25,410 nucleotides of DNA from Terriglobia bacterium (GCA_047514915.1 JAKZXP010000324.1:1-25410); one strand, 5' to 3'. Counted from the stretch's first letter, positions 19,265 to 22,940 are shown. Notes: generated by a model from the letters alone, not told the origin. Translations and numbers: made by a program.

Positions 19265-20971
19265 ATGTCCCAACGTCCGTTTATTGTCGCGCTCGTCGCC
19301 CTGGCGGTGCTTCTTGTTACGACCGCGCGCACCACGCCACCACCAGCAAACTCCGGCCTCGTCGATCTTACGCTTCTGGTGGCGGCAGACTTCCCGGGCA
19401 CCTGGCCTAAGAACGATTGGCCACTTTTCCAGATGTCCCATTACCTTCGTATTGGCCCCAAAAGCCCCTACAACAGCGACGTTTTGCTCCTCGAGGGGAA
19501 TGTCGGCACGCAACTCGACACGCCGCCGCACTCGATTCCCATGCCTGGTTCCGGCCTCCCCAACGCCGGGCCGGCTGGTCTCCTGTTCGCGGAAAGCGTC
19601 CCACCCTGGCAGTTTGTCGGAGAGGCCTGTGTGATCAACGTTGCCCACCTGCGGGACCGCGCAGCCAAGGGGCACAGCCCCCTGATCCAAACCAGCGACA
19701 TCCAGGCATGGGAGAAAAAGCACCGGCCGCTGGGACCAGGCGACGTGGTGATCTTCGCCAGCGGATATAGCGATGCCTACTACCTTCCCCTGCCCGAGGG
19801 CAGGCGGTTTATCGCCGATCCGCTGGAAGGGCGTACGCCCGCCTGGCCTGACCCCACTCCCGAGGCCATGGAATATGTGGCCAAGCGGGGCGTGATGGCG
19901 GCGGCCACCGACAGCCCGAGCATGGGTCCGATTCCCGATTATGCCGACCCAACGCATACGGCCGGGCTGAAGTATGGAATGATCTGGACCGAAGGGGGAA
20001 CTGGGTTCGGACAACTGCCGCCGACAGGAGCCTTGTACGGCGTGCTCTCTCCGAAATACGTGGGCGCCATGGCCACCGAGGCGCGCGCCTTGGCGGTCAT
20101 CGGCTCGCCCCTGGCGGGGCAGTTGATTGAGTCAGCCCGCAAGAAGAGGGTCGTGGATCTTTCGGTGATGTTTGCCGACAACCTGCCCCTGTGGTGGCCC
20201 GGAACCGGATTCGGCAATCATCGCCAGCGCCTCCTGACGGTGCGGCATGCCTATGATCCGAAAACGGAGGCCTCCCACATGGTGCACATCATGGACGCCC
20301 ACACCGGCACTCATCTTGTTCCGCCGGTCTACTCTTTACCGCCCCCCGGCTTCTCCAACAGCAGTTACTCGCCCGAGGTGCAACGCTGGCTGGCCGAATA
20401 CGAAAAACAGTTTGGTCCTCGCGGCACAAGTGAGGTGACCGTGGAAAAGGTGCCTGTCTCGCAGACCAGCGGGTGGCTTCGGGTCATTGATGTGCGAGGA
20501 CTGGCCGGCTCCACGGACCGCAGCAAGTGGCCTGCGGCGCCCGAAATCCAGTCCGCCCATGTGGCAGAGTATGAGAAAAAGAATGGGGCGCTGCAACCGG
20601 GCGAGATCGTGGTCTTTCAGACCGGTCACAGCCAGCGTTGCGTACCGTCGGAAAAGGACCCGAAGGCCACTGGCTGCCTTGACGATCCCATCAACGGCCG
20701 TAGCGAGGGCTGGCCAGCGCCTGGGCCGGAAGTCATCGTCTATTTGGCCGGCAAGGGGATCCGGGCTGTTGGCATTGATGCGCCCACGCTCGGAGGCGTG
20801 GAGCCCCGTCGCGCGCTGATGACCTACTGGGCACTAGGCAGCAAGGGCATGGCTGGCATTGAGTACCTGACCAATCTTGAACAGCTTCCTGGGAAAGCGT
20901 ATCTGCTATTTGCCGCGATCAAGGTTCGCGACGCTCACGGCTCGCCCGGCCGGGCCCTCGCCCTCTACTAG
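19265..20971 (+). CDS. Secreted tandem cyclase-family (kynurenine formamidase-like) protein, two domains
   Basis: Signal peptide. Domain 1: VDLTLL...NVGTQLDTPPH...GDVVIFASG...ATDSPS..H..TEG. Domain 2: VDLSV...HTGTHLVPPVY...GEIVVFQTG...GIDAPT...IEYLTNL...GSPGRALA. AAGGAG RBS. Confidence 0.85.
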   Translation: MSQRPFIVALVALAVLLVTTARTTPPPANSGLVDLTLLVAADFPGTWPKNDWPLFQMSHYLRIGPKSPYNSDVLLLEGNVGTQLDTPPHSIPMPGSGLPNAGPAGLLFAESVPPWQFVGEACVINVAHLRDRAAKGHSPLIQTSDIQAWEKKHRPLGPGDVVIFASGYSDAYYLPLPEGRRFIADPLEGRTPAWPDPTPEAMEYVAKRGVMAAATDSPSMGPIPDYADPTHTAGLKYGMIWTEGGTGFGQLPPTGALYGVLSPKYVGAMATEARALAVIGSPLAGQLIESARKKRVVDLSVMFADNLPLWWPGTGFGNHRQRLLTVRHAYDPKTEASHMVHIMDAHTGTHLVPPVYSLPPPGFSNSSYSPEVQRWLAEYEKQFGPRGTSEVTVEKVPVSQTSGWLRVIDVRGLAGSTDRSKWPAAPEIQSAHVAEYEKKNGALQPGEIVVFQTGHSQRCVPSEKDPKATGCLDDPINGRSEGWPAPGPEVIVYLAGKGIRAVGIDAPTLGGVEPRRALMTYWALGSKGMAGIEYLTNLEQLPGKAYLLFAAIKVRDAHGSPGRALALY

Positions 20972-21008
20972 GTTACGGTAGGGCCATGACGTTACGGCAA
21001 GGCATGAT
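20972..21008. repeat. Degenerate ~19-bp tandem duplication just after the cyclase stop
   Basis: gttacggtagggccatgac / gttacggcaaggcatgat. Confidence 0.55.
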
Positions 21009-21019
21009 TCGCCAAGTCT

Positions 21020-21035
21020 GCCCCGGGCCCGGGGC
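21020..21035. terminator. GC-rich perfect 16-bp palindrome, possible terminator stem
   Basis: gccccgggcccggggc about 50 nt downstream of the cyclase stop; no U-tract, so the function is uncertain. Confidence 0.3.
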
Positions 21036-21051
21036 TCCGATGAGATTGCGG

Positions 21052-21080
21052 TTGCCGTTGCATTAATTCGGTGCTAGGTT
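21052..21080 (+). promoter_or_regulatory. Probable sigma70-type promoter for the DsrE gene
   Basis: TTGCCG (21052-21057)-N17-TAGGTT (21075-21080) with extended -10 TGn; GGGAGGT RBS follows at 21111-21117. Confidence 0.5.
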
Positions 21081-21122
21081 GCCAGCGGGGTTTCGATCAC
21101 TGTTCTCCGTGGGAGGTTTACA

Positions 21123-21494
21123 ATGCCTAAGACTCTGGTCACGGGTATCCATGGCGTGGAAGATCCGACCAAAGCAGGATTGGTCTTCGTTGTTGCCAAG
21201 GGGGCCAAGGGGGCCAAGGAGGCCGGGCATGAGGTTGCCATTGCTCTGGTGGGCGATGGCGTGATTGTCATGAAATCCGCGGTGCGCGACAGCATCGTGC
21301 CGGTTGGGCTGCCGCCGCTGAAAGAGCTGTTCGCCTTTGCTGTGGGCAACAAGATTCCCGTATATGTTTGAAGACTTTGCGGGAAGGCCCGTGGGGTCTC
21401 CGAAGAAGATTTCCAGGGGATCAATGCCTCTTGGATGGATCCTAAACGTTACGCCCAGCTGGTTGCGGAACACGACCGCGTAGTGAGTTTCTGA
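21123..21494 (+). CDS. DsrE-family protein, probable selenoprotein (UxxC; TGA 21369-21371 read as Sec83)
   Basis: The frame continues past the TGA: IPVYV-U-RLC-GKARGVSEEDFQGINASWMDPKRYAQLVAEHDRVVSF-stop(21492-21494), giving 123 aa. This matches the DsrE C-terminal pattern V-C-x-x-C-x-x-ARG...D-x-V-x-x-F. The N-terminal half has DPTKA and IALVGDGV motifs. Confidence 0.88.
21195..21221. repeat. 9-bp tandem repeat x3 (in-frame, AKG-AKG-AKE)
   Basis: gccaagggg / gccaagggg / gccaaggag. Confidence 0.75.
21372..21408 (+). promoter_or_regulatory. Putative bacterial SECIS element
   Basis: Hairpin GGA(21382-84)-A-GGCCC / loop GUG / GGGUC-UCC(21399-401). The apical loop starts with G at 21391, 19 nt after the UGA, consistent with the bacterial SECIS model. 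Folded by eye only. Confidence 0.65.
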
Positions 21495-21644
21495 AGTAGC
21501 CTTCTGCCAGCTTAGCGGAGGGAGCCGGGTACCTATCCGCCTCCACTGCAGCCCACCCGTCGTAATCAATCTCGCGGAGCACGTCTTAGAGTTGCAACTA
21601 CGGGGGGTTTTCAGTGCGTGGCAGTAGCCGGGCTCGATCGTCTA

Positions 21645-22940
21645 TCAGGCCTCCTCGCCCAGCGCTTCGGCATCTTCTAGCTTGACGGCTCCTTTGCCCC
21701 GTTGCTGCAGCACTAACAACGCAAAAGCGAGGGCCAGTAGGGCAGGCAGGGCCACCAGATGTCGCAATGTGGCCGAGCCGGCCGCAAGCTGCACCGTCGT
21801 CCAGTGGGCCGCCTCGGCCGTGCCCGCAGCCGCATCTCGCAGCATTTCCACCGTTGTCCCGAGCGGCAGGGCGCCGGCGAGTTGTTGGTCATAGATGCGG
21901 CCGACCGAGGGGAGGGCCACGCCGGCGGAGGCCATGCCAGCACCGCCGATGAACGCAAGGCCCAAAGCGCCCGAGACGGGCAAACGTTCCGAGACAAAGC
22001 CCAGCAGCGTCGGCCAGAAATAGCAGACTCCCAAAGCGAAAATGGCCGCCGCGGCCAACGACGTCAGGCCGCGCGCGTAACTCATCGCATAAAGCCCGAT
22101 AGCCGCGAACACCGTTGCGAACAGAAGCAGCCCGGGGGTGGTTAGCAGCCGCACCATCGGGCCGACGACCAGCCGGCCCACCATCATGATGCTACTCACC
22201 CACACCAGGACCAAGATGCCGGGAACGCCGGAGTTTTCCAGCAACAGCGCGATCCACTGGTTGGTGCCAGTTTCCGTAGCGGCGGCCAGAACCATGCACA
22301 AGATCATGAACAGGAACAGCGGCCGAACGCACTCGGCAAACATTTTGCGGGTCGAGATCCCCGAGGCCACGCGCTCGGTCGCGGGGAATGGCTGGCGGAA
22401 AAACATGAGCCCGTAGATTACAGTGGGCACCAGCAGGATGGCTGTCTGGATTTGCCAGCCGGCGCCCAGGCGCTGCAGCAGGTAGGCGACCAGGCCGCCA
22501 ATGACGATTCCGCCGGGCCACCATGCGTGGTACTGATTCAGCTTCTTGGTCTTCTCCTCCGGATAGAGGGTTGCCACCAGAGGATTGGTCGCTCCTTCCA
22601 CCAGGCCGTTGGCGATACCGATCAGAAGCGTAGAGAAAACCAGAGACCAGAATCCGACCGAGAAGATGGTCAGCACCGTGCCCAGGGCGTGGCCGAGCCA
22701 GGCCCCCGCCATCAGCCGGCCCATCCCCAGCACGTCACACAGGGGGCCGGATAAGAACAGCGACAACATGGTGCCCCAGAAGGCGGCGCCGGCGATCCAT
22801 CCCAACTGCGTGCCGCTCAGGTGAAATTCCTGGCCCAGCTCGCTCATGATGGCGCCGCGAACGCCGAACGCCATGGCGGTGACAATCAGCGCTACGCAGC
22901 TTGCGCTATACAAGCGCGCCGCGTTGGGCTTGCTCTTCAA
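21645..22940 (-). CDS. MFS transporter (sugar/FucP-like)
   Basis: About 12 hydrophobic segments; motif A-like GPLCDVLGMGRL; GLVEGATNPLVATLYP, WPGGIVIG, FWPTLLGFVSERLP; TTG start with AAGGGGG RBS. Confidence 0.88.
   Translation of the reverse strand: MKSKPNAARLYSASCVALIVTAMAFGVRGAIMSELGQEFHLSGTQLGWIAGAAFWGTMLSLFLSGPLCDVLGMGRLMAGAWLGHALGTVLTIFSVGFWSLVFSTLLIGIANGLVEGATNPLVATLYPEEKTKKLNQYHAWWPGGIVIGGLVAYLLQRLGAGWQIQTAILLVPTVIYGLMFFRQPFPATERVASGISTRKMFAECVRPLFLFMILCMVLAAATETGTNQWIALLLENSGVPGILVLVWVSSIMMVGRLVVGPMVRLLTTPGLLLFATVFAAIGLYAMSYARGLTSLAAAAIFALGVCYFWPTLLGFVSERLPVSGALGLAFIGGAGMASAGVALPSVGRIYDQQLAGALPLGTTVEMLRDAAAGTAEAAHWTTVQLAAGSATLRHLVALPALLALAFALLVLQQRGKGAVKLEDAEALGEEA

Follow-up and report, generated by a model that had tools for sequence, protein, structure and literature searches.

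The plus-strand region 21123-21494 of the window, the whole 25,410-nucleotide stretch of DNA that was analysed, is very probably a single gene encoding a 123-residue protein of the DsrE/DsrF fold, in which the UGA at codon 83 is decoded as selenocysteine (Sec); we put the probability of this reading at about 0.92. The window is contig C324 of the host MAG (1.9 Mb in 342 contigs, 62% complete). The gene was compared with 90 homologous loci at 43-98% identity, 6 of them from species-representative genomes and 80 from metagenome contigs, with the rest fetched by protein identity. The argument draws on the family and fold of the protein read across the UGA, on a constrained and covarying hairpin just downstream of it, on the conservation of both the UGA and the frame that follows, and on the Sec machinery of the host and its genus.

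Reading frame, family and fold

The following features of the gene are used throughout.

21123-21494, plus strand: full coding sequence of the predicted DsrE-like selenoprotein, 123 amino acids and the real stop codon TGA (21492-21494), translated with TGA = U
21111-21116, plus strand: Shine-Dalgarno-like GGGAGG, read off the sequence, with a 6-nt spacer to the ATG at 21123
21195-21221, plus strand: 9-nt in-frame repeats GCCAAGGGG, GCCAAGGGG and GCCAAGGAG, encoding A-K-G repeats, one unit more than in the closest relatives
21369-21371, plus strand: in-frame UGA, predicted Sec codon (U83) and first residue of the UxxC motif; TGA in 89 of the 90 homologous loci
21378-21380, plus strand: TGC codon for Cys86, second residue of the UxxC motif, invariant in alignment A2 (with the U of L027 counted as C)

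Translation confirms the layout from which the original prediction started: an ORF of 82 amino acids (21123-21371) is closed by the TGA at 21369-21371, and the same frame runs on for 40 sense codons to the TGA at 21492-21494, which completes a protein of 123 amino acids. The motif at the in-frame TGA reads U83-R-L-C86, with Cys86 being the likely resolving cysteine of the UxxC pair. The homologous genes terminate at the equivalent 3' position, with TGA, TAA or TAG as the stop codon. The gene had also been credited with expression signals of its own. The ribosome-binding site holds up, with GGGAGG located 6 nt before the ATG, but the promoter-like elements are not supported, a sigma-70 consensus scan of 20900-21700 having yielded 0 sites. 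A single terminator-like match at 21167-21185 falls within the gene and was discarded as being at chance level.

Compared with all homologs, the repeat run at 21195-21221 amounts to a 3-residue insertion. The copy number of the GCCAAGGGG repeat varies, so that the database forms have 76, 79 or 82 amino acids, the one in the window being the longest. The repeats fall in the helix formed by residues 15-34, where the confidence of the structural model drops to 85, and the contigs assembled from one public sequencing run (X15) break at this stretch.

The protein matches the Pfam DsrE family (PF02635) over residues 28-123, that is, across the TGA, with an E-value of 3e-13 and a score of 50.3 bits against a gathering threshold of 22.7. 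The AlphaFold2 model, which was built on an alignment of full-length relatives, reaches a pLDDT of 96 and a pTM of 0.89; in this model, U83 ends the strand 80-83 and the helix 84-89 follows directly. The top 13 PDB matches of the model are all DsrE-fold proteins (TM 0.66-0.79), the best ones being 3pnx, YchN (1jx7), DsrEFH (2hy5), 3mc3 and TusBCD (2d1p). A HMMER search over 1.84 billion cluster representatives (50% identity) produced 330 relatives, the best 150 of which were classified by their state at the U column:

CxxC at the U column: 47 of the best 150 of the 330 cluster representatives
gene call ending exactly at the U column: 42 of the best 150 of the 330
SxxS at the U column: 15 of the best 150 of the 330
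W or G at the U column: a few of the best 150 of the 330

At least one of the W entries is a product of translation with TGA = W (L112, labelled 'with_TGA=W'). Among the aligned, more distant full-length relatives (n=38), Cys occupies the U column in 24 and CxxC is present in 23, and some distant relatives carry Ser or Gly there. The profile of this alignment matches the solved structures 3mc3, E. coli YchN and TusD and places Sec83 in the column of the TusD Cys within '..NICVAAALRRG..', which is the persulfide-carrying Cys78. The proposal that the TGA sits where DsrE proteins have the first Cys of the motif thus agrees both with the CxxC class among the best 150 of the 330 representatives and with the aligned Cys of TusD.

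The RNA hairpin downstream of the UGA

A stem-loop with a G-initiated apical loop had been predicted 19 nt past the UGA. It is the structure denoted hairpin B in the list below, in which nt 1 is the U of the UGA.

21382-21401 (nt 14-33), plus strand: hairpin B, the proposed SECIS; its stems can be formed in 65 of 65 unique Sec-type homologs
21387-21398 (nt 19-30), plus strand: RNA core GCCCGUGGGGUC, conserved and encoding Ala-Arg-Gly-Val; synonymous variation suppressed
21372-21399, plus strand: alternative hairpin A, 12 bp (nt 4-15 with nt 20-31), loop AAGG at 21384-21387; the MFE fold in the window sequence

Hairpin B consists of a 5' arm at 21382-21390, from which A 21385 is bulged, a loop G23-U24-G25 at 21391-21393 and a 3' arm at 21394-21401. 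Its energy is -10.8 kcal/mol in the window and -10.1 kcal/mol on average over the 65 unique Sec-type sequences, 64 of which form it at -5 kcal/mol or better. The core GCCCGUGGGGUC occupies nt 19-30 in almost all homologs, and the third-position entropy of the corresponding codons, +6 to +9, is 0.00, 0.67, 0.65 and 0.99 bit, respectively (75 unique sequences), compared to about 1.4-1.9 bit for four-fold degenerate Gly, Pro and Val codons at other, comparably conserved positions of the gene. This low synonymous entropy indicates that a constraint at the RNA level is added to the constraint on the protein.

Covariation points in the same direction. In the core of hairpin B (nt 17-22 with nt 26-31), 80% of the cells are paired, compared to 76% in shuffled alignments, with the caveat that this core is nearly invariant, so that most of its pairs are unable to show covariation. 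The pair 18-30 is GC in 33 sequences, CG in 7 and AU in 2, and A-U, G-U, C-G and G-C all occur at the pair 17-31. The covariation score of hairpin B is reached by 0 of 500 shuffles, a count that, like the other shuffle counts given here, is not a probability because the homologous sequences are related. The lower stem is paired in two registers, depending on the clade: the clades with CGC...GCG adopt a second one, in which U29 is bulged, and behave in the same way. G23 is invariant in 57 sequences.

Hairpins A and B overlap and are mutually exclusive, and in the window sequence hairpin A is the more stable of the two by 5.5 kcal/mol. Compared to shuffled sequences, the region does not stand out in its folding energy (z = -1.15). 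The case for hairpin B above the chance level is, therefore, comparative and does not come from the fold of a single sequence; with respect to the predicted folding after the UGA, hairpin B does form locally, but the MFE structure is hairpin A and the overall energy is unremarkable.

It could accordingly be asked whether Sec is inserted under the direction of hairpin A, with its AAGG loop, rather than of the G-U-G hairpin. We consider this rather unlikely, even though it is the most probable of the alternatives. Hairpin A is the MFE fold in the window and in the nearest clade, with pair probabilities of 0.7-1.0, and a few double changes are found at its pairs 13-22 and 15-20. Across the family, however, its pairing barely exceeds that of shuffles (74.0% versus 73.1%, 57 sequences), 84 of 500 shuffles attain its covariation score, it cannot be formed in 5 of the 65 sequences, and no more than 15 of 66 MFE ensembles contain it. 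The geometry of decoding provides a further argument. When the UGA is in the A site, the ribosome covers nt 4 to about 15. Judging from this footprint, the 5' arm of hairpin A (nt 4-15) would be within the mRNA channel, so that the hairpin could not exist at the time of decoding, whereas hairpin B would be positioned at the channel entrance. The loop of hairpin A (nt 16-19) is also closer to the UGA than the loop of the E. coli element. Hairpin A is, then, probably not the element that is read by SelB.

In the E. coli fdhF SECIS (PMC8659212), the essential upper stem-loop comprises nt 15-31; its loop contains G23 and U24, and nt 17 is bulged. Hairpin B resembles this element in that both lie in the coding sequence immediately past the UGA and present a G23-U24 loop at the same distance from it. 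A bulged base at nt 17 is shared as well, although in hairpin B it is A rather than U and is not conserved. The loop of hairpin B is of 3 nt (GUG) here and of 4-6 nt in the CCR clade, and other clades differ from fdhF by the U29 bulge on the 3' side. On the strength of the comparative signal, the position of the fdhF loop and the ribosome footprint, we take hairpin B (21382-21401) as the predicted SECIS, to which SelB would bind. The constraint, the covariation and the formability in all 65 sequences bear out the stem-loop of the original prediction.

The expected course of events is that, when a ribosome arrives at the UGA, the adjoining downstream mRNA folds into the hairpin at nt 14-33; SelB with Sec-tRNA(Sec) would bind the G23-U24-G25 loop, and Sec would be delivered with no termination. 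The second UGA (21492-21494), which is followed by no such hairpin, is the real stop. Such a course leaves the current picture of Sec decoding unchanged; the conserved hairpin defines a bacterial SECIS family that aligns cleanly and could be made into a covariance model.

Generic searches had a different outcome. A scan of 20900-21700 against Rfam at E up to 10 gave no match to a SECIS family, which does not count as evidence against a SECIS because Rfam holds curated families only. Two other matches in that interval were dismissed as chance: one to the mycobacterial sRNA ASdes at 21409-21491, inside the coding tail, which scored 23 bits, under the gathering score of 40, and one to a snoRNA model. 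RNAalifold, applied to 66 sequences of 60 nt of unaligned length, returned no consensus structure, and the hairpin was then tested as a named structure.

Stop codon, standard residue or Sec

The loci in which the gene is found come from soil, sediment, sponges and Acidobacteriota MAGs, those from genomes being titled 'MAG: Terriglobia bacterium', 'Acidobacteria bacterium' or 'Candidatus Marinacidobacterales'. All 90 keep the frame open past the U83 column, and the tail retains the pattern U-G-x-C-G-K/R-A-R-G-V-S/T-D/E-x-D-L ... P-K ... D-R. Outside the hairpin region, the amino acids of the tail are conserved, and its four-fold synonymous sites show 1.4-1.9 bit of variation. Such free synonymous variation under a conserved protein sequence is indicative of purifying selection on the translated product. 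The expectation that homologs carry Cys or Sec at position 83 agrees with the TGA in all but one of the close loci, and decay after the TGA, which was looked for in close relatives, is absent. The exception, L024, has GGC (Gly) at the Sec column (L024:4238-4240). This gene is full-length and 63% identical to that in the window, and it retains both Cys86 and the GCCCGUGGGGUC core; the Gly codon may reflect a recent loss of Sec.

These observations weigh heavily against the possibility that the TGA is a true stop, such that the product is an 82-residue DsrE fragment, or the locus a pseudogene, and the downstream frame a remnant. Existing gene calls agree with it: standard callers give products of 76-82 amino acids both for the window and for about 30 homolog clusters, which were retrieved by a word-indexed protein search. 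None of these cluster proteins extends past the first 66% of the query, and all are therefore truncated at one place. Nevertheless, a remnant would decay, whereas the TGA occupies an identical column down to 43% identity and the 40-codon tail stays open and conserved; neither the Pfam domain nor the confidently modelled fold is complete without the C-terminal third of the protein, and the Cys-type homologs are full length. We consider a true stop very unlikely. The short calls, for the window and for the roughly 30 clusters alike, are better seen as the truncation by gene callers that had been anticipated. All database copies that we found are of 76-82 amino acids or have W or G translated at the Sec column, and given that NCBIfam has no family-level model for this subfamily, automatic pipelines will keep mis-calling the gene.

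Slightly less probable still is that the UGA is read as Trp, Gly or Cys, through a changed code or near-cognate suppression. Some database entries do show W or G at this column, but these are choices made by annotation pipelines. In the window, TGA closes 4 of the 11 other long ORFs as well as the DsrE-like gene itself, so that it serves as a normal stop and a reassigned genetic code is excluded. The tRNA-Trp of the host has a CCA anticodon, and the only UCA anticodon among the 17 host tRNAs found belongs to tRNA-Sec (78.5 bits; SeC(tca) in ARAGORN). Under simple recoding, moreover, a conserved hairpin at the SECIS distance would have no role, and the host encodes other components of the Sec pathway. 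SelD is present (360 bits), with one in-frame TGA in '..KASGUASKLSPKVL..', at the catalytic Cys/Sec position. SelB is represented by a C-terminal fragment with winged-helix domains 2 and 3, in an ORF at a contig edge. The host SelD is itself a selenoprotein, encoded on contig C333 (L007, minus strand, ORF 1402-2799).

A search for selA drew a blank in the host MAG (62% complete); the gene is present at >550 bits in all 3 same-genus genomes (96-97% complete), and 26 of 31 relatives have a match above the cut-off. Two of the 3 congeners and a more distantly related genome of the class carry the DsrE-like gene, each copy with one TGA. The use of Sec by the host, implied by the original prediction, is thus probable from tRNA-Sec, a Sec-containing SelD and the SelB fragment; for selA, the case passes through the congeners. 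In one relative (G012:C56:5613-6978), the selA match contains an in-frame TGA and is in two pieces; a frameshift, a misassembly or a broken gene could be the reason.

The last alternative, a sequencing or assembly error for TGC or TGT, is negligible: contigs of four public runs from three studies, aligned to 20900-21700, all have the TGA unchanged, and it recurs in two congeners and 86 other loci. Two of these runs are from RNA libraries, and the kind of the two others is not on record (one, X15, is guessed to be DNA). That the gene occurs in RNA libraries suggests that it is transcribed, albeit without proving it. The sole difference among the run contigs is A>G at 21372, in the codon after Sec. 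This change, present in 3 of the 4 runs (X13, X14 and X5), is a strain variant that replaces Arg84, unique to the window, with the Gly of the family consensus and turns the A4-U31 pair of hairpin A into G-U. Sponge metagenomes and metatranscriptomes (X15, X20-X22) are among the runs that contain the stretch, so that the host is probably an acidobacterium that lives in association with sponges.

Known relatives, predicted function and variants

The original prediction correctly described DsrE-like proteins as a reported selenoprotein family. A DsrE-like protein of PF02635 with a UxxC motif was identified as a selenoprotein family in the Sargasso Sea data, with 2 Sec-containing sequences (Zhang, Fomenko and Gladyshev 2005; PMC1088965), a member has been described in Desulfovibrio vulgaris (PMC1794560), and a 2026 review lists these selenoproteins as functionally uncharacterised (PMC13188914). 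By the published definition, PF02635 together with UxxC, the window gene as read from its sequence belongs to this family. It shares with the published members the Pfam family, the UxxC motif, a bacterial SECIS past the UGA, the existence of Cys homologs and the lack of an experimentally known function. The published members come from Deltaproteobacteria and ocean surface water, whereas the clade of the window gene is found in Acidobacteriota MAGs and in soil, sediment and sponges; it also differs from the published family in that it consists almost wholly of the Sec form (89 of 90) and includes a few UxxU members. The novel aspects are the lineage and habitat of the host, the almost exclusive reliance of the clade on Sec, the clear definition of the SECIS core and the extent of the mis-annotation. 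A Sec-dependent DsrE-type protein would thereby be added to the Acidobacteriota, including an apparently sponge-associated lineage, with a true product of 123 amino acids that carries Sec at the active-site column.

Among characterized proteins, E. coli TusD and Allochromatium vinosum DsrE have the same fold as the window protein (TM 0.70-0.79). The active-site Cys of TusD falls in the Sec83 column and is followed by a conserved Arg-Gly, but TusD has no second Cys ('C-V-A-A-A'), unlike the window protein with its Cys86. The closest solved relatives, by profile as well as by fold, are YchN (1jx7; E 1.7e-12) and 3mc3, a DsrE/DsrF-like protein of Sulfolobus solfataricus (E 1.2e-7). The group of these two proteins bears the JGI label 'predicted peroxiredoxin' and, like the window protein, they are single-domain and stand-alone. 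YchN has the same C-x-x-C-x-x-x-R-G motif. Both have Cys where the window protein has Sec.

With respect to function, Sec83 would be the attacking nucleophile, which either accepts sulfane sulfur or attacks a disulfide or a peroxide, and Cys86 would resolve the selenenylsulfide formed at Sec83. The fold, together with the UxxC pair and its position at the active-site column, points to a Sec-based role in thiol/selenol redox chemistry or sulfur transfer, and we consider it an even call that the protein is, in the broad sense, a redox or sulfur carrier that works through a selenenylsulfide cycle. The lineage would then be spending selenium on a small putative redox or sulfur-carrier protein. The prediction of a Sec-containing DsrE-family protein truncated by gene callers is thus supported, whereas the sulfur-relay or redox role that came with it is best kept as a suggestion derived from homology.

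Three homologs contain two in-frame TGAs 9 nt apart (U-G-G-U) followed by a conserved tail, namely L027:3326-3337, L089:2040-2051 and L112 (gene at 475-699), and could possibly represent a diselenide variant. The first two are 75% identical to each other and have in common a second hairpin at nt 31-51, of 7-8 bp in L089 and weaker in L027. L112 is without this second hairpin and has an extra in-frame stop near the N-terminus, so that its gene may be broken. If the UxxU reading is true, two UGAs 9 nt apart would be decoded by one SECIS or with the aid of a second downstream hairpin. It is tempting to go further and posit that these stand-alone DsrE-like proteins make up a large clade in which Sec use is almost obligate, with a strongly conserved GCCCGUGGGGUC SECIS core of its own, systematic truncation in the public databases and, in some members, UxxU diselenide centres; in this full form, the proposal is tentative and, on balance, doubtful.

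The protein is a stand-alone one. The neighbors of its gene in the window are a putative cyclase gene upstream, on the same strand, and, in convergent orientation, genes for an MFS transporter and a dehydrogenase. Partner genes of the DsrF/H or TusB/C type are lacking nearby in the window, and no neighbor is common to more than 7 of the 90 loci. With the NCBIfam TusC models, whose cut-offs are 79-94 bits, the protein reaches just 12-13 bits (12.8 where the cut-off is 94), so that neither the DsrEFH/TusBCD partners nor similarity to TusC at the equivalog level is seen at the window gene. The stand-alone location and these low scores together indicate that the protein is not a subunit of a DsrEFH/TusBCD-type hetero-oligomer. 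In L027, chromate-transporter genes are located downstream. In 7 of the 90 loci (L027, L089, L101, L104, L106, L109 and L110), which include both clear UGGU variants, the gene is directly preceded, some 200-300 nt upstream, by a same-strand ORF of about 200 amino acids that resembles SAM-methyltransferases.
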